A stretch of DNA of 33,235 nt, taken from the NCBI GenBank assembly GCA_013331965.1, contig DUFL01000051.1:1-33235 (forward strand), read 5' to 3'. Position 1 is the first letter of the stretch, and each line of letters opens with the position of its first letter. The notes beneath the pieces are model-generated. The model did not search any database, was not told where the DNA came from, and worked only from the letters and a program-made list of their open reading frames with translations. Below are positions 126-33,232 of this stretch, piece after piece. Origin of the DNA: Candidatus Woesearchaeota archaeon (GTDB lineage: Archaea > Nanobdellota > Nanobdellia > Woesearchaeales > UBA10107). The position numbers were made by a program, and so were the translations under genes.

Positions 126-241
126 TTTTGCCGCTGGTTCGACCCTTGCTTGTCAGATAAACTGCCGTTTTCCTGTAGGGAGCACCCCCTTCCGGCAAAA
201 TATTCTTTTTATTTATCGGGTCTCACGTAATGGCGGCAAAA
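126..241 (+). ncRNA. GC-rich three-stem hairpin element, copy A (candidate structured sRNA / repeat family)
   Basis: P1 ttttgccgc(126-134)/gcggcaaaa(233-241). 5' loop tggttc. P2 gaccc(141-145)/gggtc(218-222). 3' loop tcacgtaat. P3 tgccg(163-167)/cggca(193-197). Apical cct-gta-ggg-agca-ccccc. Same architecture as copies B-E. The transcribed strand is not proven. Confidence 0.55.
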
Positions 242-2770: not shown

Positions 2771-2928
2771 GTTAGCATCGGCTCGCGATGTAATTGTTAA
2801 TTATCACATCTCGTTCAAGTCCCGGATGGTACAATCTCGACAAAGTCGAGCTGTGCGCAACTTCGTTGCTGAGCGTCCCCTTTAGCTCTTATTATTCGTT
2901 TGTATTTATCGCTCGCAATTGATGCTAC
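2771..2928 (+). ncRNA. GC-rich three-stem hairpin element, copy B (long variant)
   Basis: P1 gttagcatc(2771-2779)/gatgctac(2921-2928), extended by flanking A5/T7 runs. Loops ggctc and tcgcaatt. P2 gcgat(2785-2789)/atcgc(2908-2912). Conserved ttatcaca, gagcgtcccc and cttatt motifs. Extra internal hairpin ctcgac-aaa-gtcgag (2836-2850). Confidence 0.55.
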
Positions 2929-2952
2929 TTTTTTTAATTATTTAGAAACAAT

Positions 2953-3219: not shown

Positions 3220-3369
3220 ATTATTCTTTGAAAATAGGTCCTTTATAAATGTTGTTATGATGCAAAAGTAGTATTGTAAGCTTAGTTGTGCCATCGACTC
3301 GGCATGCAATTTAACTCATAAATACATAAATTTTTATAATAATCTGCATTCAAAAATAGAGGGGGTTTT

Positions 3370-4637: not shown

Positions 4638-5244
4638 ATTACCTCTTTTAGCCGAATTTGTTCGGCATTTATGTTTCTTACATTAGGTATTATGCCGATT
4701 AGTTAATAAGCCTCACGCGCGGTTGTCCAGTGGGAAATTAAAACTTTTAATCAAAACTCACATATTATGTCTAAACGCCAATTGAAAGCCAATTCATGAA
4801 CTAATCAACTATGCCTGGGCAAAATGATGGTCAGATATACTAACAAACCACTAAAAAATTCAGTAAAAATAATCATTCGGAATTATCTCCAAATAAGCTG
4901 TTTCCAGGAAAAACTATGTTTTGCACAAAAACATGCAATTCGTGTATAATCCCGACTCTGTCGGAATGATTTATTCTATTCTGGCATTATCCCGACAAAT
5001 TAGTTCAACCCTTAAACAATGCTTAACCCCGGTTGAGCATCAAAACTTTACATTTGCATCGGAATTAAACAATAATCCCGACAAAGAAACAAGTTCAAGG
5101 AGCAATTAAGGGATTATTCCTGCAATCAGAACCAGTATACGAATTAGGCACAAAAAAACACGTAGTTGATTTATTATTCGAATATCATCGATTTTTGCCC
5201 AAAAACAGAAAGGTTTAAATATAACAAGTTAAACATGTTTACAT

Positions 5245-5891: not shown

Positions 5892-6608
5892 TTAACCCAT
5901 GTAACTTAGCTGTTTTTTCTGCTGGATTTCTCCGGCTTCCTTGCCCTTAGACATTATTGCCTTCAATTTGCTTTCAAACTGCTCAGCCTGTTTTTCCAAA
6001 GGCTTAGGATCAACATTTAATCCAAGATATTTGTCCAGGACTCTGATGACTGCCGCCGCTGCTTTCGAGTCAGGCATCGCAGAGTGAGTTTCTGCAAAGA
6101 TGCAGCTCATCGTCTGCTTAGTATTCTTCGCTTTTAACAAAATCGTGCCGGTAACTCCCATTATGACTCCTTCCTGCAGTTCATCAACATTCATTCTCTC
6201 AAAATCCTTTCTTATTTTTTCGCTGTTTGAATAGTAGAATGTTTTAGGGTTGTCATCAGAATTGGCACTTCCGACTCCCTCAACTGAAACAATCTCTTTT
6301 GCTTCAAGCATATTCGCCAGCTTTAATACAACTTCGCTGAACTGCCATTCCAATCCTGCAGGATTCGTTACAACGTGCAGAAAAACTATGTTGAATTTTT
6401 TATTGTAGAAAATTTCAATCGGCTGGACGACCTCTCCTTTATGCAAAGCAACCATTGGGGGGATTTCTTCGCTCACTATCGTTCCGATTGACTCGCAGTC
6501 AAGATGATCAATTAAATATTCAGTAACAATAGTTCCAATTAATCCAAATCCGGGAAAGCCTTCCACCAATATGACATCTTTTGGTTTTTTTGTGAGAATA
6601 ATCTCCAT
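5892..6608 (-). CDS. PAC2-family protein (archaeal proteasome-assembly chaperone PbaA/B-like)
   Basis: MEIILTKKPKDVILVEGFPGFGLIGTIVTEYLIDHL is the typical PAC2/COG1938 N-terminus. Start set at Met10 of the track ORF, 1 nt after the stop of the upstream gene. Confidence 0.75.
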   Translation of the reverse strand: MEIILTKKPKDVILVEGFPGFGLIGTIVTEYLIDHLDCESIGTIVSEEIPPMVALHKGEVVQPIEIFYNKKFNIVFLHVVTNPAGLEWQFSEVVLKLANMLEAKEIVSVEGVGSANSDDNPKTFYYSNSEKIRKDFERMNVDELQEGVIMGVTGTILLKAKNTKQTMSCIFAETHSAMPDSKAAAAVIRVLDKYLGLNVDPKPLEKQAEQFESKLKAIMSKGKEAGEIQQKKQLSYMG

Positions 6609-8380: not shown

Positions 8381-8420
8381 TAGTTACTTAGTAGTGGTTA
8401 AAAATAGAAAGGTTTATATA
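8381..8420 (+). promoter_or_regulatory. shared promoter cassette copy 1 (imperfect palindrome + BRE/TATA)
   Basis: tagttacttagtagtggttaaaaatagaaaggtttatata. The ATG at 8443 lies about 25 nt downstream of the TATA. Confidence 0.7.
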
Positions 8421-8442
8421 TTACTGAGCTTTGAATGGCAGC

Positions 8443-9564
8443 ATGTCAGGATTATCTAAGTCAGCAATAGCATTGGCATCTTTGCTAGCTACGGCCGGAT
8501 GTGCAGGAAATAAAGTTAAACCAAATGATATTCAACCAGCAGTTCAATCTGCTCCAAAAATTAAGGTTCTTCCTTTGTCAGTCAGAACAGCAGCAGAACA
8601 TAAACATTTCGAAGATATTACAAAAAACTATTGTATTGTTTATACGGATTCAAATGGTGCACATAAAATAGAGTTTTCTTCAACAACAACCGCAGAAGGG
8701 AATCTGAGAATAGCAGAAAATTATTCAGACTTAACGCAGCTGGTTAGTGAATCATATCCGGGGCAATTAAATCCCCCAAAAGTTTTTGCAAGTAAACCTA
8801 GTGAATATTTTTTTACAGATGTAGATAACAAAAATATTTACAAGTATTCTGCATCAAAAGATCAAAAAGAAATAGGTTTAGACCTTATCGCATCAAATAT
8901 TGACCTGGGATGTTATGATTTTGTTGGGGATACTATTATTTTTATAACTAAGGATGGTAAATCCATTAAAAAATTAAATAGCGATGGTTCGCATGAAACC
9001 GAGCTTTTTGCCGGAGAGACAGTTACTTTTAACGATTTAGTAATTTCTCCAAGCCAAAAAAGAGTAATTTTTACAAAATCACCGGTCAGCAGAGGAGGAT
9101 CATTGTCGATTTTCAATAATGCAGCATATTATGTTATGGATTTAGAAGGAGACAACAATTCCAAGCCCATGAAACTTGGATTTGAAGGATTATTCGGGGA
9201 ATATGATCAATCATCCGGGCCGCAAAATGTTTCGTTCTTGATGAAAACAGACAACGGAAGATCTTCTTTAGAAAATAAGATATTATTCACATATAGATAC
9301 CCGACTGCAAAAGGAAATAATCTTTATTCTGTTGAACTCGGTGAATTCTTGAGAGATTGCGGTTGCATCCCTCTTAAAAAAGAAACATTAAAAAGGATTA
9401 CTTCGGATGATGCACCGATAACTTACGCAAAACAAGTAAAAGATAATAGCGATTATATTATCTATGTGCAGGATGGAAAACTTTTCTTGGCGAAAGATAA
9501 CGATAGATTTCTTTTGTTAGAACAAAGATTTAATGGTTCAGAACCTCTGCTCGTAAAAAAATAA
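8443..9564 (+). CDS. secreted lipoprotein-like beta-propeller (TolB/PD40-like) protein
   Basis: MSGLSKSAIALASLLATAGCAGN is a signal peptide with a lipobox-like AGC. Repeated DG-x-x-(I/L)-x-F type strands (KDGKSIKKLNSDGSHETELF, SPSQKRVIFT). Start moved from TTG 8431 to ATG 8443 (leaderless spacing from TATA). Confidence 0.7.
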   Translation: MSGLSKSAIALASLLATAGCAGNKVKPNDIQPAVQSAPKIKVLPLSVRTAAEHKHFEDITKNYCIVYTDSNGAHKIEFSSTTTAEGNLRIAENYSDLTQLVSESYPGQLNPPKVFASKPSEYFFTDVDNKNIYKYSASKDQKEIGLDLIASNIDLGCYDFVGDTIIFITKDGKSIKKLNSDGSHETELFAGETVTFNDLVISPSQKRVIFTKSPVSRGGSLSIFNNAAYYVMDLEGDNNSKPMKLGFEGLFGEYDQSSGPQNVSFLMKTDNGRSSLENKILFTYRYPTAKGNNLYSVELGEFLRDCGCIPLKKETLKRITSDDAPITYAKQVKDNSDYIIYVQDGKLFLAKDNDRFLLLEQRFNGSEPLLVKK

Positions 9565-11261: not shown

Positions 11262-11280
11262 GGGTCTACTCATATTCACT

Positions 11281-11320
11281 TATATATAAACCTTTCGTTT
11301 ATTTACTACTCATAAGTGAC
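11281..11320 (-). promoter_or_regulatory. shared promoter cassette copy 4 (internal promoter of the cluster)
   Basis: Minus strand reads gtcacttatgagtagtaaataaacgaaaggtttatata. Confidence 0.6.
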
Positions 11321-13099
11321 TTATTTTACGTATTTCTCCCCTTGATAAGCATTTTCTATTGCCTCAGCAATTCTCTGCCTTAATCTTGTTAGTTTACGGA
11401 TTATTTCATTATATTCAGATTTTGTTATTACCTGCGGAAGATTTGCCTCATTAATTAATTCTTGAATCTTCCTTGCTAATTCTTCGTATTCAACTGCATC
11501 ACTAAACCAATCATACAGCTCAGATTTGCCTCCTTTCTCTTTAACCATCTCAAATACTGCTTCATTTTGCAATGATTGTTTTGCAAACAATGAAATGTGG
11601 GCAGGCATTATTCTTTTCTTAAGCTCAAACGGACTTATTATCTCATCTCCGCTAGGATATCCCTGAGACTTGACGGGTAATGGCCATTTTGCTTTTTCTG
11701 CTGAAAATAATCTTCTTCTCTGCGCAAAATTGCGAACTTCGATCATGCTTTTTATCGCTTCTTTTTGTTTTTCACTTATTTTTTGTTCTATTCCTCCAAG
11801 CAATTCGTTCATTTCTTTTACTTTTTTAGCCAGTTCTTTTCCTTCTTTGGAGTTTTCATCTACTTTTTCTACACATATCTTTATTATTTCTAAATCTTCA
11901 ATCAATGTTTTTCCTCTAACTCTGCCCGTACTTAAATCAGACAGCGCGGATTTTAATCGTCCTATTAATTTTTCATCAAGTTTTAGCAATCCTTTTATTT
12001 TTCTTATATTATTCCCGAGTTCATTTATATGCGGATAGTAATTTGTATTAATCAGTTCAACTTCTATTCTTAAATTATTTTTAATTTTATCCACTTCATC
12101 TTGAATATCTTTTGCAGCATAACTTATGGTTCTTCCTGCAAACATTTTCTTTAAAGCTTCTAACTTTTCAGTGTCTTTTCTATATGATTTAATGAGAGAT
12201 GTTCCAAATCCTGATTCAAATTCTGAAAGAAAAGCCAGATATTTTTTAACATCTTCTTTCACAACTTCGTCTGTGTTTTCGAGTATTTTAAATTCTGTAT
12301 TCAACCACACCTTCAAGAGATCTCTTGTTGCCTGCTCATTTAATTTTGCTGGTTCTATTTTTCCATTTATCTTTAGCATCTCGATTAGTTCGTTAAATTT
12401 CTGTTGATTTTGATTTACTGCAGTTTCCCTATCCCCGAAATGTTTTTCGATAAATTCCTCTATCTTTTTCTTCTCCATAAGTTTTTTTGGATTAAATTTA
12501 TTTAGAGTTTCAAGCAAGTCTTCTTTTGTTTTTTTAGCAATCCATCCAAATAATCCGGATCCAAAAAATGATTTCCAGTTTCTTGCATCAGGGTTTATAC
12601 TCATTCTGAATAGATTAAATAGCAATAAAAATAAAAGAACATAAATCGGATATGCTACATACCAAGGAAACCCGGATGAAGCGTAAAGTATTGGTTTTTT
12701 ATGAACATTAATATCAAACAAACTTGCAGGTATTGCACTTTCTTTCTTTTTTAATATCTCTTGTATTGCTTCATCATTTAAATTGTATTTTTTAATGGCA
12801 TTTTTTAATGAGGCTCTGACCTCTTTATCTAATTTAACAATCTCCGGGAAATTTGAAGGATTTAGTTCTTTCAATTTGGTGGTTTGCGATTTCATTAATT
12901 TTGCCACAGCTAAAGTAAGTGCGGCGGTATATTCTCCATCGATGAAATTCGGATCACTCATAACGCCGGCAAAAGGTTTTTCTATATTCGCTATGTAGGC
13001 TTCTGCTTTTTTATATTCCGGAGTGTCTTTCGCGGCAAAAGCCAGACTTATATTAAAGAATAAGACAATAATGAATATTGAGGCAATTTTTCTATTCAT
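11321..13099 (-). CDS. signal-peptide / single-TM protein with about 400-aa cytoplasmic coiled coil, 592 aa
   Basis: Signal peptide IASIFIIVLFFNISLAFA. TM WYVAYPIYVLLFLLLFNLF followed by RMSIN. Long E/K heptad region. ATGA overlap with the upstream gene. Confidence 0.8.
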   Translation of the reverse strand: MNRKIASIFIIVLFFNISLAFAAKDTPEYKKAEAYIANIEKPFAGVMSDPNFIDGEYTAALTLAVAKLMKSQTTKLKELNPSNFPEIVKLDKEVRASLKNAIKKYNLNDEAIQEILKKKESAIPASLFDINVHKKPILYASSGFPWYVAYPIYVLLFLLLFNLFRMSINPDARNWKSFFGSGLFGWIAKKTKEDLLETLNKFNPKKLMEKKKIEEFIEKHFGDRETAVNQNQQKFNELIEMLKINGKIEPAKLNEQATRDLLKVWLNTEFKILENTDEVVKEDVKKYLAFLSEFESGFGTSLIKSYRKDTEKLEALKKMFAGRTISYAAKDIQDEVDKIKNNLRIEVELINTNYYPHINELGNNIRKIKGLLKLDEKLIGRLKSALSDLSTGRVRGKTLIEDLEIIKICVEKVDENSKEGKELAKKVKEMNELLGGIEQKISEKQKEAIKSMIEVRNFAQRRRLFSAEKAKWPLPVKSQGYPSGDEIISPFELKKRIMPAHISLFAKQSLQNEAVFEMVKEKGGKSELYDWFSDAVEYEELARKIQELINEANLPQVITKSEYNEIIRKLTRLRQRIAEAIENAYQGEKYVK

Positions 13100-19425: not shown

Positions 19426-19470
19426 AGAAAATTGAACCTTTGGGACATTTATAAAAGTTGCTTTTTCAGG

Positions 19471-19633
19471 GGCTCTGTCCCAAATCTTACGATTTGTCGT
19501 TAGCACCGACTCACGATGTAATTCTAACTTATCACAAACCGCTGAAGCCCCGTAGGGGGCGACCCCCTCAGCTTTGTTTATTATGATTTATCCATCGCTC
19601 GTAATTGGTGCTAACGACTTTCGGGACAGAGCC
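19471..19633 (+). ncRNA. GC-rich three-stem hairpin element, copy C (with extra outer stem P0)
   Basis: P0 ggctctgtccc(19471-19481)/gggacagagcc(19623-19633). P1 gttagcacc(19499-19507)/ggtgctaac(19607-19615). Loops gactca and ctcgtaatt. P2 cgatg(19514-19518)/catcg(19593-19597). P3 gctga/tcagc. Apical cccc-gta-gggg-gcga-ccccc. Confidence 0.6.
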
Positions 19634-19644
19634 TTTTTCAGGCA

Positions 19645-19792
19645 TTGTCAACTCTGTTGTGCTGTCGGCTCGGCATGTAATGATGCAGCAATCAGAAGCC
19701 GCTGAAGTCCCGTAGGGAGCGTCCCCTTCAGCTTATTTTCATATGCAACTATTGATGCCTCGCGAAATGACAACACAACAGACTCATGACAA
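19645..19792 (+). ncRNA. GC-rich three-stem hairpin element, copy D
   Basis: Outer ttgtca(19645-19650)/tgacaa(19787-19792). P1 ctgttgtgctgtc(19654-19666)/gacaacacaacag(19769-19781). Loops ggctc and tcgcgaaat. P2 ggcat(19672-19676)/atgcc(19755-19759). P3 gctgaag/cttcagc. Apical tccc-gta-ggga-gcg-tcccc. Confidence 0.6.
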
Positions 19793-19811
19793 AGATACAT
19801 GGTTAGATTTG

Positions 19812-19850
19812 TAGTTACTATTAAGTAGCTAAAATAGAAAGGTTTATATA
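19812..19850 (+). promoter_or_regulatory. shared promoter cassette copy 2
   Basis: tagttactattaagtagctaaaatagaaaggtttatata. The ATG at 19876 lies about 26 nt downstream of the TATA. Confidence 0.7.
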
Positions 19851-19875
19851 GCGATCTTTATTAAATCCTTCTCCA

Positions 19876-20781
19876 ATGGTGGAACTACTTAATTATTCAG
19901 ATCATCAATACTATCCCCGTAAATCGTTTAAAGGCTTAGAGAAATTAGTTATTTTTCCCGAAGGTGAACTAAAAAGCGATGGCATCCCAAATGGCTCAGT
20001 TTGGATGTTTAACTCCCCAGATCATACTTACGACCCACGAATTCTCGCAAATGACGTTGGGTGCGGTATGTCCGCATTTTTGATTTCTAATGAATTTAAT
20101 TATAAAACTGCCGCGGATAAGGTTGCAGATTTTATGAAAAATAAAAGAATTTTAGGCAATGGAAATCATTTTGTAGATATTTGCGGTCCTTTTGAACCTT
20201 TGACGGATCAATCATACCCAGGACACAGTGTTTTAGTTATTCACACAGATGGAAAATCTTTTGATAATGCCTCGCCAAAAACATTTGAAGAAGTAAAATT
20301 AAAAACACAAAAGGCGATAAATTTTAGACATAATTTGGGCAATGATCTTGCAAAATTAATTGGAGCTTATAAACTTGAAACACTTGGAGATTGGCCGCAC
20401 AACACCGTTGAAGTGGAAAATGGAAGTTATGTTTATCGTAAAGGGGTAATTAAAGTTACTCCGGAAAAAATTCATATGCTGCCTATGCACGTCGGGTCTA
20501 CAATTTTATTTTATACTATTCACAAAGACGATATTCCAGTTGCACATTCTATGCCCCATGCAAGCGGAAGAAGGGGTCCAACTGGAGACTTTAAGGTATC
20601 TGTTGAAAAGGCAAAAGAAATTAGAAATATGGTTTATGTTCCAGAATTAGTATCCGACTCTTCGCTGAGATCAGTTCATCCGGATTGCTTTAATGAATCC
20701 ACTCCAATATACAGAAAATTTGGAAAGCAAATGGTAGGGTTAGGAGAAACTCGAATTAAAGCATTTATTGGTAAAATTTAA
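19876..20781 (+). CDS. rtcB: miniature RtcB-like RNA ligase homolog (301 aa)
   Basis: Ordered RtcB signature blocks: NDVGCGM (Asp/Cys metal ligands), GNGNHFVDI, HTDGKS (in place of HSGSRG), PHNTVE, YRKGV, MPHASGRRG (in place of HGAGR, the guanylylated His). About 180 aa shorter than canonical archaeal RtcB. Confidence 0.7.
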   Translation: MVELLNYSDHQYYPRKSFKGLEKLVIFPEGELKSDGIPNGSVWMFNSPDHTYDPRILANDVGCGMSAFLISNEFNYKTAADKVADFMKNKRILGNGNHFVDICGPFEPLTDQSYPGHSVLVIHTDGKSFDNASPKTFEEVKLKTQKAINFRHNLGNDLAKLIGAYKLETLGDWPHNTVEVENGSYVYRKGVIKVTPEKIHMLPMHVGSTILFYTIHKDDIPVAHSMPHASGRRGPTGDFKVSVEKAKEIRNMVYVPELVSDSSLRSVHPDCFNESTPIYRKFGKQMVGLGETRIKAFIGKI

Positions 20782-23535: not shown

Positions 23536-23605
23536 AGCTGGTTCGTGCTTAGTGCTGCTTTCCTTCAAAGCTAATGCACCCAGGCCGGATTTTAATCATA
23601 ATACT
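23536..23605 (+). repeat. truncated/short-form copy of the hairpin element family
   Basis: cttaagc-tggttc-gtgct ... gcaccc-aggccgg-attttaatc. Same order of blocks as the short copy at 25633-25680, but no 3' partner strands. Confidence 0.35.
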
Positions 23606-23690
23606 TCTAAACCAAAAAACACGTACTGCGCACTAACAAACCAAAAATCAACCTTCGTAACCTTTAAATACTAATTCAGTGTTGTTTTTA

Positions 23691-25559: not shown

Positions 25560-25632
25560 ACACTGCATTGATATTACTTGCTTTTTCTGTCGCATCCCGC
25601 CTGATTTTAATTTTTTAATAATAAACTAAAAA

Positions 25633-25680
25633 GTTAATATCGGTTCGACTCTTATGCCGCACCCATGCCGGATTTTATTC
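25633..25680 (+). repeat. truncated/short-form copy of the hairpin element family
   Basis: gttaatatc-ggttc-gactc-ttatgcc-gcaccc-atgccgg-attttattc, preceded by the family leader aaactaaaaa. No 3' P2/P1 strands. Confidence 0.4.
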
Positions 25681-25700
25681 ATTAATTACAAATTAAAAAA

Positions 25701-25817
25701 GTTAGCGTCGTTCACGGTTATTTGAAAGTCTATCACATATCGTTGGTGTCCCGTAAGGCACATCCCCTCCAACTCTTATTCTAAATATATTATAAATCGT
25801 TCACACCTGACGCTAAC
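25701..25817 (+). ncRNA. GC-rich three-stem hairpin element, copy E
   Basis: P1 gttagcgtc(25701-25709)/gacgctaac(25809-25817), flanked by A6/T4. Loops gttca and ttcacacct. P2 cggtt(25715-25719)/aatcg(25795-25799, one G-U). ctatcaca motif. P3 gttgg/ccaac. Apical tccc-gtaa-gg..cacatcccc. Confidence 0.55.
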
Positions 25818-25947
25818 TTTTGATTAAGCTTCAGTACATGTGCTAATTTTATCTTAAGCCTTAGTAAAAGTGCTAACTGCGTATCTCCTATTGCTGCCCC
25901 TATGATATGTAGTAATCTTTATAAATGACCATAAAAGCCAAAATACT

Positions 25948-26379
25948 ATGGCAACAGTACAAGACGTTCCGGCTGACAAATTAATATCAAAAACAGCAAA
26001 GGAACTTGAAGCTAAACCTGAATTTAAGGCTCCGGAATGGGCTCAATTCGTTAAAACCGGCGTTTCCAGACAGAGACCGCCAATGAAAAAAGACTGGTGG
26101 CACACAAGAGAAGCAGCAGTTCTAAGAACAGTTTATTTAGAAGGTCCAATTGGTACAAACACATTAAGAATAAAATACGGCGGAAAGAAAAATATGGGAT
26201 ATACTCCAGAAGAGACTAAGAAAGGATCAGGTTCAATCGCAAGAAAGATGCTACAGCAATTGGAAAAAGCAGGACTTGTCAAAACAGAATCAAAGGGAGT
26301 AAATAAAGGAAGGGTAATAACTCCTGCCGGAAAGAAATTCCTGAATAAAATATCAACAGAAATCATAGGTAAAAAATAA
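25948..26379 (+). CDS. rps19e: 30S ribosomal protein S19e (eS19)
   Basis: VQDVPADKLI...PEWAQFVKTGVSRQRPP...DWWHTREAAVLR...GGSGSIARKMLQQLEKAGLV is colinear with eS19. TATA ctttataaat lies about 25 nt upstream. Confidence 0.93.
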   Translation: MATVQDVPADKLISKTAKELEAKPEFKAPEWAQFVKTGVSRQRPPMKKDWWHTREAAVLRTVYLEGPIGTNTLRIKYGGKKNMGYTPEETKKGSGSIARKMLQQLEKAGLVKTESKGVNKGRVITPAGKKFLNKISTEIIGKK

Positions 26380-29091: not shown

Positions 29092-29231
29092 AAATTAACC
29101 TGCCGAAATCAATTATTTAAAGTTATGCCTAGTTCTACCTCAGTAAAAACACATGCCAAATTTTCGTATTAATATTATTAAACCAAAAAATGTCCAATAA
29201 GTTTAAAAACTGAACAAACCTAAATTCATAC

Positions 29232-31512: not shown

Positions 31513-31822
31513 GATTATTCCATAACAGGGTTAGTATATAAATATTTTGAAAAGGATAATATATTGTGCATGAAAAATAGTAAAATCTGCTTATTTTTGA
31601 TGAAAATCCGAAAAAATACGTCTTTTAAGCGAAATTCATGTCAATTTTAACTCTAAAAATAACTAATTTCTTGTTTATTTATAAATAAAACAAGATATTT
31701 AATTAAAAATAGCCTAAAATGGGTTAAAAATGGCTAAAAATAACCAATTAATACTTAAATTAACAAGATTTATAAATAAAAGATATCCTAAATAAGCTAA
31801 ATAGGGTTAAAAATAGGTTAAA

Positions 31823-33232
31823 ATGACAAAATCAAAGTTTGCAAGACTGCAGGAAAAACTCGTAATCAAGCAGAAATCAGCCTGGAATAATTTCAACGAG
31901 AAGCAAAGGCAGTCTATATTTTCATTCTGCGAAAAATACAAAGAGTTCCTGAACGAAGCAAAGACAGAGAGGGAAGCAACAGAAACCATAATTAAAGCTG
32001 CAAAAGCGAAAGGATTCAAAGAATTAGAGTCATTCGATTCTTTATCTCCGGGAGATTCATTTTTTTATAACAATAAAAACAAAAGCGTAGTCTTAGGAAT
32101 AATCGGAGAGGAAGCTGAATTTAATATGACTGGAGCTCATATTGATTCTCCAAGACTGGACTTAAAACCCCGGCCTTTTTACGAAGACGGGAATCTGGCA
32201 TTATTAAAAACACATTATTACGGAGGAATCAAAAAATATCACTGGTTCGAAACTCCGCTGGCAATCCATGGAATAGTGATTGATAAGAACGGAAAAAAGA
32301 GAGAAATAAAGATAGGAGAGAATGAAGAAGATCCTGTTTTTGTAATTTCTGATTTATTGCCGCACATAGGGAGAAAAACTGAGGAAAAATCAGTAAGGGA
32401 AGCTTTTGAAGCGGAAAATCTCAATGTCATAATCGGGAATATTCCGATAGTCAAAGATGATAAAATAAAAGAGAAAATAAAATTAGGAATATTATCGATA
32501 TTGAATGAAAAATACGGAATAATAGAAGAAGATTTTATCTCTGCAGAGATTGAATTAGTCCCTGCAACAAAAGCAAGGGATGTCGGGTTTGACAGGGCGC
32601 TTATCGCATCTTACGGCCAGGATGACAGGTCATGCGCATATACAACATTAAAGGCACTGTTTAATTCTGAGAACAGGAAAAAAACAAGGCTCGCTTTTTT
32701 CTATGACAAAGAAGAAATAGGCAGCGTCGGAAATACCGGAGCAGCTTCCCAATTAATGGAAAGGGTCGTTGAAATGATATTGAGGAAAAGAAACAGCAAA
32801 AAAACAGCGAATGAAATAATCTCAAAATCAATAGTGATTTCAGCAGATGTGACTTCTGCATTCGATCCGAGTTTTGCTGGGGTGTTTGATGCTAAAAATG
32901 TGAATAAGATGGGGGGAGGAGTTGCTGTTGAAAAATATACAGGCTCCGGAGGAAAATACGGAGCAAGCGACGCGAATGCAGAATATATCTCCTTCATAAC
33001 GAGGCTGCTGAACGAGAATGATGTCTGCTGGCAGGCGGGAGAAATAGGGAGAGTTGATGAGGGCGGAGGAGGAACAATAAGCTACATGATTGCAAAATAC
33101 GGATGCGATGTCATCGACATGGGAATTCCTGTGCTGGGAATGCATTCCCCTTCGGAAATAAGTTCAAAAGCTGATGTTTATTCTGCTTATCTGGCATACA
33201 AGGCATTTTTTAATACGGCAAACACAGAATGA
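31823..33232 (+). CDS. M18-family aminopeptidase (aspartyl aminopeptidase / aminopeptidase 1-like)
   Basis: TGAHIDSPRLDLKP, HYYGGIKKYHW, GQDDRSCAYT, FYDKEEIGS, GGGGTI and LGMHSPSEI occur in the order typical of M18 peptidases. Confidence 0.88.
   Translation: MTKSKFARLQEKLVIKQKSAWNNFNEKQRQSIFSFCEKYKEFLNEAKTEREATETIIKAAKAKGFKELESFDSLSPGDSFFYNNKNKSVVLGIIGEEAEFNMTGAHIDSPRLDLKPRPFYEDGNLALLKTHYYGGIKKYHWFETPLAIHGIVIDKNGKKREIKIGENEEDPVFVISDLLPHIGRKTEEKSVREAFEAENLNVIIGNIPIVKDDKIKEKIKLGILSILNEKYGIIEEDFISAEIELVPATKARDVGFDRALIASYGQDDRSCAYTTLKALFNSENRKKTRLAFFYDKEEIGSVGNTGAASQLMERVVEMILRKRNSKKTANEIISKSIVISADVTSAFDPSFAGVFDAKNVNKMGGGVAVEKYTGSGGKYGASDANAEYISFITRLLNENDVCWQAGEIGRVDEGGGGTISYMIAKYGCDVIDMGIPVLGMHSPSEISSKADVYSAYLAYKAFFNTANTE

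Follow-up and report, generated by a model that had tools for sequence, protein, structure and literature searches.

What are the GC-rich hairpins that recur between the genes of a Woesearchaeota contig, and why do two of them stand in tandem beside the gene of a ribosomal protein? The question is raised by a stretch of 33,235 nucleotides from Candidatus Woesearchaeota archaeon (assembly GCA_013331965.1, contig DUFL01000051.1, positions 1 to 33,235 of the forward strand), which is called the window below. It belongs to a DPANN archaeon, and its genes include those for the ribosomal proteins L35Ae and S19e, RpoL and LonB (Pfam). An original prediction, made from the letters alone, had described five copies (A to E) of a structural RNA, of which C and D form the tandem. 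[quoted passage not shown] The family overall is old and diverged, and it evolves like a structured single-stranded molecule.

Insertion of element C and its relatives

A covariance model built from 16 distinct family members has five matches in the window, all on the plus strand and with 72-114 bits. Each of the five proposed copies is real and stands where it had been placed. The tandem contains the following features.

19448 to 19456, minus strand: TATA box of L35Ae (TTTTATAAA on the minus strand; from sequence, with L35Ae assigned by Pfam and its ATG at 19428)
19462 to 19470, no strand: left copy of the target-site duplication (TSD) of element C, TTTTTCAGG (single in strain variant L005; TSD scored computationally)
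19471 to 19633, plus strand: element C, a 163-bp C-type MITE-like insertion (empty site in L005; same element elsewhere with other TSDs)
19471 to 19481 and 19623 to 19633: terminal inverted repeats (TIRs) of element C, GGCTCTGTCCC and GGGACAGAGCC, which flank spacers and the hairpin core
19499 to 19615, plus strand in the orientation of the model (the complement pairs better): core hairpin of C (match of 114.1 bits, fold, covariation), with P1 = GTTAGCACC/GGTGCTAAC, then P2, P3 and the apical hairpin P4
19634 to 19642, no strand: right copy of the TSD of element C, TTTTTCAGG (sequence, comparison with L005)
19641 to 19795, right boundary approximate, plus strand: element D, a probable and older D-type MITE of about 155 bp (ends compared with other D-type copies)
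19658 to 19777, plus strand: core hairpin of D (match of 109.4 bits; fold; P1 extends over 19655-19667/19770-19782)

The final two bases of the right TSD of C are also the initial two bases of the left inverted repeat of D. This repeat (GGCATTGTCAAC, 19641-19652) is intact. The right end of D is degenerate or truncated and does not have the ACAATTAAGTTGACATCGYC that is present in other D-type copies.

Strain variants of the L35Ae locus were obtained via exact-protein look-ups, and proteins identical to those of the window were found on groundwater-metagenome contigs and on Woesearchaeota/Nanoarchaeota metagenome-assembled genomes (MAGs). The variant L005 reads ...ACATTTATAAAAGTTGCTTTTTCAGGCATTGTCAAC... 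(GTTGCTTTTTCAGGCATTGTC), where TTTTTCAGG occurs once and copy C is missing. In the window, the order is TTTTTCAGG, the 163 bp from GGCTCTGTCCC to GGGACAGAGCC, and TTTTTCAGG again. Since L005 keeps the exact empty site and TTTTTCAGG is duplicated in the window, copy C is a 163-bp insertion with 11-bp TIRs and a 9-bp TSD. The limits 19471-19633, which had been drawn for a hairpin, are the exact ends of a mobile element, and its core takes up 19499-19615.

The C element was also found at L021, L037/L022, L024, L019 and L025, and near-identical C-type copies occur at six or more other sites, each of which has a 9-bp duplication of its own. C1-type copies, identical or 1 nt apart, occur at several sites, and contigs stop at the element. 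Seven different 9-bp TSDs were found in all; those outside the window are as follows.

L021: ATTTTTGGC, 9 bp, C-type
L037/L022: TCGTTTACA, 9 bp, C-type
L024: AAAATTAAC, 9 bp, C-type
L025 composite: AATTCGAGC, 9 bp
L023: TTCTTTTAG, 9 bp
L031/L036: ATTCAAGCG, 9 bp, D-type

The TSD is 9 bp in every C-type case; among D-type copies there is one of 9 bp and one of 8-9 bp. Complete D-type ends (GGYKAWGTCAAC...GTTGACATCGYC) are present in the copies of L024, L025 and L031/L036, the L013-type has the TIRs GGCTCAATTGCAAGT/ACTTGCAATCAACC, and element ends were also recorded as GGCTCTGTCCCAAA / GGCTCAATTGCAAG. At least four subtypes with different outer ends bear TSDs. The elements are non-coding, with no internal open reading frame (ORF), and measure 163 bp (C), about 155 bp (D) or up to 350 bp (the L025 composite).

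Element D is present in all strain variants. The orthologous L35Ae/RtcB-like spacer (113-154 nt) contains neither D nor C in the relatives L042/43, L044 and L045/46, three hairpin-free loci whose flanking protein is 82%, 57% and 49% identical, and no family member was found in 36 kb of these loci (L042-L046). As in MITEs, the elements are small and non-coding, have TIRs and a TSD that is fixed in length but varies by site, with an empty site, and occur in near-identical copies. The original prediction had itself raised the possibility of recent, near-identical MITE insertions with TSDs; this holds for copy C but not for the whole family.

Contigs end inside the element or switch flanks exactly at its ends, and several join the left flank of one site to the right flank of another. 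These mixed flanks result either from recombination between dispersed copies or from assembly chimeras at the repeat. The same C element has different left flanks in L002 (1-3520), L004 (1-3520), L034 and L021, namely a tRNA cluster/LAGLIDADG/TopoVI side and a HisRS side. The TopoVI-B of L002 carries an intein.

The family is restricted to Woesearchaeota/Nanoarchaeota contigs, and its distribution is patchy. A pattern for the apical motif of the hairpin occurs 4 times in the window against 0.00 expected. In the genome collection 7 of 7 loci with this pattern were Woesearchaeota/Nanoarchaeota MAGs, and 24 metagenome contigs matched. The apical-motif pattern and the TIR patterns had 0 matches in viral contigs, and BLAST against plasmid and phage databases gave 0 matches to the family. 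About 36 distinct copies are known outside the window besides the 5 inside, and copy density can be high (4 family copies in 8 kb of L012). The earlier statement that all copies lie on the plus strand is correct within the window but is not a rule of the family, as other contigs show mixed orientation.

Target sites and element ends

At 7 of 7 independent C-type sites, and at the L013-type site, which belongs to another species, the start of a TATA box is exactly 15 nt beyond one element end. The box is TTTATAAA, TTTATATA or TTTAAATA, with the pattern TTTA[AT]A[AT]A. The background of this pattern in these contigs is only 0.0006 per position per strand; therefore, chance is excluded. The element is followed by the 9-bp duplication, then by 6 nt (consensus aaaaCC, the position of the B recognition element, BRE) and then by the TATA. 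Of 5 D-type sites, 4 have a TATA-like box 13-16 nt away, among them window D as read in the C-less L005. The TTTATAAA box lies 15 nt outward from the left end of C, and 13 nt from the left end of D in L005. The TATA-proximal end is the "right" end in 11 of 13 cases, the exceptions being both window elements. Since the 9-mers and the 6-nt spacers vary, and since the empty site already has the TATA, this box is the target and not cargo. The TATA box that had been noticed at 19449-19456 is thus relevant to the elements: 19448-19456 is the landmark 15 nt from C.

Integration seems to be directed to the upstream edge of archaeal promoters, into a 9-bp target that lies 6 bp (the BRE position) upstream of the TATA. 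The machinery may recognize either the BRE/TATA sequence or promoter DNA bent by TBP/TFB. Element D probably inserted first beside the L35Ae TATA (19448-19456), and C later entered the 15-nt gap that the rule defines between TATA and D, 2 bp into the tip of D, displacing it. The tandem would then exist because successive insertions use the same TATA landmark. The distance rule also accounts for tandem and nested clusters elsewhere and, if the promoter-seeking reading is true, it explains the repeat clusters, assembly breaks and rearrangements in these MAGs.

Two side observations concern the promoters themselves. Genes appear leaderless at window positions 19428/19448-19456 and 25912-25948 and in the L021 and L037 flanks, with the TATA ~25-27 nt before the ATG, and several of these boxes are the palindromic TTTATAAA. 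A module of ~45 nt (GTAGTTACT..AGTAGCTAAAATAGAAAGGTTTATATA) occurs in the window at 8382-8427 (plus), 11276-11321 (minus), 19808-19853 (plus) and 5202-5221. It has an imperfect palindrome directly upstream of BRE/TATA, is kept in the orthologous spacers of L042 and L044, and may be a binding site of a regulator common to several promoters.

In the preferred reading, each element is a long imperfect palindrome in which short TIRs enclose a ~117-nt core that folds, as a single strand, into a four-helix rod. The staggered duplication of fixed length suggests that the elements are moved in trans by a DDE transposase with 9-bp staggered cuts, possibly an IS6-like one, as the TIR tips appear IS6-family-like (GGCnnTGTC...CAAA). 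The IS6 assignment of the ends is tentative. Inverted repeats of the IS6 family are described as having a "G dinucleotide at the tips, cTGTt and caaa motifs" (PMC7986276). The C-type end GGCTCTGTCCCAAATC and the L013-type end GGCTCAATTGCAAGT agree with this, whereas the agreement is only loose for D-type and L023-type ends. A resemblance to IS1-family ends ("GGnnnTG") was considered and dropped in favour of the IS6 description.

The folded core and its possible role

The core is a ~117-nt hairpin of four helices, P1-P2-P3-P4, with conserved loops, and each window copy folds into a long hairpin; the three-stem architecture of the original prediction is replaced accordingly. Core length is narrow (116-124 nt in 16 hand-trimmed copies) across subtypes with unrelated ends. 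In a plain MAFFT alignment of 16 sequences, 91.4% of the cells are paired compared with 72.6% in column shuffles (0 of 500), and in 18 of 27 pairs both partners have changed. Covariation scores 0.522, compared with 0.198 in shuffles and 0.06-0.13 in slid controls. An alignment of 36 distinct sequences, which was fitted to the covariance model and favours structure, gives 90.0% paired cells against 70.1% shuffled, double changes in 20 of 25 pairs and a covariation score of 0.539 against 0.203 shuffled; the MAFFT alignment gives the same answer. None of 500 shuffles reaches the observed covariation score. Covariation on 16 and on 36 sequences confirms that the stems change yet stay complementary.

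The conserved unpaired loops (GRCTCG / CTCG..AAT, TTATCACA and YCCC-GTA-GGG-RCRNCCCC) are as originally described. The pair flanking CCC/GGG varies between C-G, U-A and G-C; therefore, the apical hairpin is NCCC-GUA-GGGN, in which the 5' C-run pairs with the G-run. The RCRNCCCC that follows is invariant and unpaired. The alternative pairing of the G-run with the 3' C-run, or a pseudoknot, had also been proposed; it involves only invariant columns and finds no support in covariation.

About 15% of the copies contain an optional two-hairpin module of 42-55 nt (CACAATCTCGRCAWAGYCGAGCTGTGC and a second hairpin), which has covarying stems and, although the copies have diverged, always interrupts the apical loop at one and the same place. 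Two of them have it at another place too, behind TTATC. The sites are listed below.

Window: 2830-2871, in copy B
L012: 7456-7616
L023: 4964-5124
L041: 691-850
L025: 8846-9056
L026: 2209-2376

The covarying stems, conserved loops, constant length and covarying optional domain show that the folded single strand of the core is itself under selection. In L008 (3553-3686, corresponding to 19471-19633), one strain or assembly, an internal stretch of 29 nt has been lost from C, and with it the 5' strand of P2; this individual copy is therefore not under strong constraint.

On the plus strand the helices contain 17 G.U pairs and 47 A.C mismatches, whereas the complement has 47 wobble pairs and 17 A.C mismatches. 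A smaller set gives 8 G.U pairs against 18 A.C mismatches on the plus strand. The minimum free energy of the complement is lower by 3.1 kcal/mol on average. In the complement, the two CUCG boxes of internal loop 1 become CGAG/CGAG, a tandem sheared G.A between covarying pairs, and in the E subtype UGAA/UGAA replaces CGAG/CGAG. Judged from these sequence features, the minus strand is probably the likelier folded strand, opposite to what had been assumed.

The known RNA classes that were considered do not account for the fold. Rfam 15 gave no match at gathering thresholds, and even at E<=5 none of the copies was matched, Hgc families included, which agrees with the original failure to name a class, and ARAGORN found no tRNA. 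A K-turn/L7Ae motif, considered for internal loop 1, needs a 3-nt bulge immediately before tandem G.A, and a C-stem next to it on the other strand. It was rejected on inspection of A2/A3: the minus-strand tandem G.A has Watson-Crick pairs at either side, the 4-6/1-3-nt loop is one or two pairs away, and the geometry of the bulge is not that of a K-turn. Hairpin and hammerhead ribozymes, H/ACA and C/D boxes, sarcin-ricin/loop E and tRNA-like T-arms ("GGTTCGA") were rejected on inspection, as the required nucleotides are absent or unconserved. The proposal of a new structural-RNA family thus stands in part. The fold is maintained, the loops are conserved and Rfam is empty, but the copies are not simply RNA genes, since C was inserted with TIRs and a TSD and D is absent in relatives. 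Covariation and conserved loops are not enough to call an RNA gene; insertion polymorphism needs to be checked too.

The other copies and repeat modules of the window are as follows.

About 80 to 125: tail+leader module ahead of copy A
127 to 240, plus strand: copy A, with an A-type core and P1 TTTTGCCGC/GCGGCAAAA (model match of 79.1 bits)
2731 to 2770: tail+leader module ahead of copy B
2771 to 2929, plus strand: copy B (model match of 71.7 bits), with the optional two-hairpin module
3273 to 3310, plus strand: 5'-arm-like fragment of a D-type element (repeat search, 79% identical to 19644-19681)
23578 to 23619, plus strand: solo tail+leader module upstream of LonB (repeat search)
25596 to 25877, plus strand: nested cluster (model match for core E, repeat comparison), composed of tail+leader (25596-25632), an outer hairpin's 5' arm and a further tail+leader (25633-25700), the full core E (25701-25817) and, on the right side, two spacer + 3'-arm boxes, GTGCTAAT (25840-25847) and GTGCTAAC (25870-25877)
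29149 to 29190, plus strand: solo tail+leader module (repeat search)

The tail+leader module (GCCGCACCCAKGCCGGATTTT..TTAATTACAAACTAAAAA) precedes copies A, B and E. The leader noticed earlier is indeed conserved, but it belongs to this larger module of ~45-70 nt, which also occurs solo and hairpin-free at 23578 and 29150. At LonB, a second leader-like repeat stops 15 nt short of the TATA of this gene. Between leader and hairpin there are 20 to 40 nt, depending on the copy. Many copies have a TATA-like TTTAATWAY / GGATTTTATTCG in the upstream module, 20-31 nt before the hairpin and flanked by A/T runs. Read on the minus strand, the A-run of the leader becomes a T5-T7 run directly after the hairpin and resembles an archaeal terminator, so that promoter-like and T-run signals are present on both strands of the copies. 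The module is a candidate promoter, terminator, end of a second element, or host palindrome/hairpin interior. The nested "Russian-doll" layout occurs in the window at 25596-25877 and in L025 at 8750-9105, where a 350-bp composite lies inside TIRs with a 9-bp TSD. In this layout, 5' arms and tail+leader modules are stacked on the left, and the 3'-arm boxes GTGCTAAT and GTGCTAAC on the right, of a complete inner hairpin.

As for its role, the core might act as a transcript, that is, a protein-bound or stabilizing hairpin RNA from read-through or divergent transcription, at odds slightly below even; a single-stranded DNA (ssDNA) transposition intermediate would be the alternative. It is more doubtful, but possible, that the machinery reads the BRE/TATA landmark and that the core is a functional minus-strand RNA placed beside the TATA, where it is transcribed or modulates the promoter, making the element an RNA module on interchangeable IS6-like ends. 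Strong covariation, conserved loops, constant length and a covarying optional domain amount to RNA-like evolution, which would also be expected of genuine ~117-nt small-RNA genes with their own promoter (tail+leader) and T-run end, acting in trans, for example in a ribonucleoprotein, with C and D as transposon captures. A conserved TATA-like module does stand before many copies, the L014 copy starts behind a TATA box, and the G+C content of the copies is 0.41-0.52 compared with 0.36 in the window. However, copies are missing at the orthologous loci of related species, and position is not conserved between species; the sole common one, upstream of UppS in L014, holds a different subtype. The TSD-bearing subtypes number at least four and have different ends, so mobility is not a one-off capture. 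The deletion in one strain, the variable spacing of a leader that also occurs hairpin-free, and a wobble asymmetry that favours the strand opposite to the transcript of the leader are further reasons why such genes seem improbable.

Stems that vary in sequence but are kept in structure, together with conserved unpaired bases, a strong strand asymmetry in sequence and wobble pairs, and nested insertions with no visible TSD at the apex of AT-rich palindromes, could also mark folded-ssDNA recombination or transposition sites (attC- or REP/IS200-like), whose shape and unpaired bases a tyrosine or HUH enzyme would read. The P1 boxes GTTAGC/GCTAAC loosely resemble the attC core sites GTTRRRY/RYYYAAC. 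The 9-bp TSDs vary by site, however, and point to staggered transposase cuts and not to site-specific or HUH chemistry; IS200/IS605 elements and integron cassettes leave no target duplication. No integrase, HUH or Y1 gene lies near any copy, and the core-site-like boxes are in inverted order (GTTAGC 5', GCTAAC 3'). An integron attC site was rejected on these grounds, as were IS200/IS605/REP-type ssDNA elements for the C and D types, and the general scheme has a very low likelihood. An equally slim chance is given to a functionless fold, in which concerted evolution keeps palindromic MITE arms complementary and the loops are slow-evolving remnants. The elements are indeed palindromes with TIRs, and the outer helices P0/P1 coincide with the ends to which a transposase would bind. 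Nevertheless, covariation is as strong in the short inner helices P2, P3 and P4, and arm conversion would erase the conserved, non-complementary asymmetric loops between P2 and P4. The constant core length across subtypes with unrelated ends, the independent covariation of the optional domain and a wobble asymmetry that follows element orientation also disagree with it.

The preferred reading, a family of promoter-seeking MITEs, has its own difficulties. About 480 kb of sequence yielded neither a transposase nor an IS-sized element that has these ends: Pfam assigned no transposase among 20 ORFs of the window, the precomputed Pfam lists of the fetched loci contained none, a search for IS-sized inverted-repeat pairs gave no autonomous partner, and tblastn with an IS26 transposase gave no match in the fetched loci. 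The duplications are 9 bp, whereas the IS6 family generally makes 8-bp duplications (PMC7986276). DDE transposition needs the ends only, and the MITE model alone leaves the conserved, covarying interior unaccounted for. The outer repeats differ between subtypes while the core is conserved; in a typical MITE family it is the other way round. No recognizable TIRs or TSDs are present in copies A, B and E, which lie behind a promoter- or terminator-like leader. The apparent flank recombinants could be assembly chimeras, and the strand asymmetry could reflect strand-biased mutation rather than RNA; either way, the minus strand is the special one. Finally, a hairpin stands upstream of UppS in both the window and L014 (UppS 63% identical), with differing subtypes, which means either a recurrently hit region or long retention. 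The L014 hairpin (6080-6196; 127-240 in the window) lies 26 nt downstream of a TTTATAAA box and ahead of the UppS orthologue. Its orthology with copy A was considered and rejected, as the intergenic region is the same but subtype and spacing differ; independent insertion is more likely.

Two further features of the window are recorded here. To the right of D, at 19876-20781, lies the gene for a 301-aa RtcB-family protein, which is unusually short, canonical RtcB having ~480 aa. A short RtcB-family gene adjoins L35Ae in several Woesearchaeota. Since the RtcB-like orthologues of relatives have no hairpin nearby, the adjacency is a coincidence. A bulge-helix-bulge (BHB) substrate or circular RNA, suggested by this neighbour, was rejected, as no 3-4-3 BHB can be drawn and the RtcB-like loci of relatives are hairpin-free. 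At 31707-31839, a very AT-rich spacer (GC 0.195) contains two 50-nt direct repeats with many GGNTAAAAAT units, just upstream of and overlapping the start of the ORF at 31823-33232 (an M18/M42 peptidase in related loci).

Comparison with known systems

The 15-nt TATA rule and the RNA-like conserved core are the two new aspects of this family. In the literature no description of the hairpin family was found; there is only a bulk MITE count for one "Woesearchaea" genome, a census value of about 105 MITEs/Mb that comes with no description of the elements and none of their structure, targeting or families (PMC11602168). DPANN archaea have tiny genomes and little known mobile DNA. The archaeal MITEs of Sulfolobus (SM1-SM4) and of haloarchaea are likewise non-coding and bear TIRs and TSDs; they differ in being internal-deletion derivatives of identified IS elements with no conserved fold.

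The IS6 family (IS26/IS257), from which rare MITEs are derived, is similar in its short inverted repeats, fixed-length target duplication and rearrangements at copies. The C-type end GGCTCTGTCCCAAATC and the L013-type end GGCTCAATTGCAAGT share GG tips, CTGT/TTG and CAAA with the IS26 end GGCACTGTTGCAAA. The duplication is 9 bp here, however, and IS6 is not known for a structured core or promoter targeting. In target choice, the closest likeness is to Ty3, which uses Pol III start sites via TFIIIB/TBP, and to Ty1, Tf1 and Tn7/TnsD, all of which keep a short, constant distance from some landmark of the transcription machinery when they integrate, so that insertions pile up or stand in tandem in intergenic regions where they do no harm. 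Their tethering proteins are known, and they are retrotransposons or Tn7, whereas this would be a DNA MITE in an archaeal host with a tether suggested by the 15-nt rule. If true, it would be the first promoter-tethered DNA transposition described in Archaea and a new example of target choice by transcription landmarks, and a promoter-homing MITE would be a natural tool to map archaeal promoters in uncultured lineages.

The core invites comparison with attC sites, which are also structure-conserved hairpins of variable sequence with conserved unpaired bases and strand-specific folding. An attC site has no variable target duplication, however, its R''/R' order is opposite, and here there is no IntI and there are no cassette ORFs. 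Hgc RNAs, the model for the GC-island argument of the original prediction, are likewise GC-richer islands in AT-rich archaeal spacers, but there is no Rfam match, and this family is multi-copy, mobile and non-syntenic. Further analogues are ERIC/IRU, Correia/NEMIS, RUP and REP/BIME, multi-copy imperfect palindromes of about 100-170 bp in intergenic regions. In these repeats the hairpin is kept by compensatory changes, long forms have internal insertions, and transcripts can fold. They occur in bacteria and have no sequence relationship to the archaeal family, the target duplication of Correia and RUP is TA, and the loops of the archaeal family are far more conserved than its stems. No ERIC, Correia, RUP or REP family is known to keep a constant distance from promoter elements when it inserts. 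If the present reading is right, the core bears on a question that has been open since ERIC and Correia, namely why some small palindromic transposons evolve like structured RNAs; the >36 diverged copies of this family, together with its optional domain, would allow the question to be tested.

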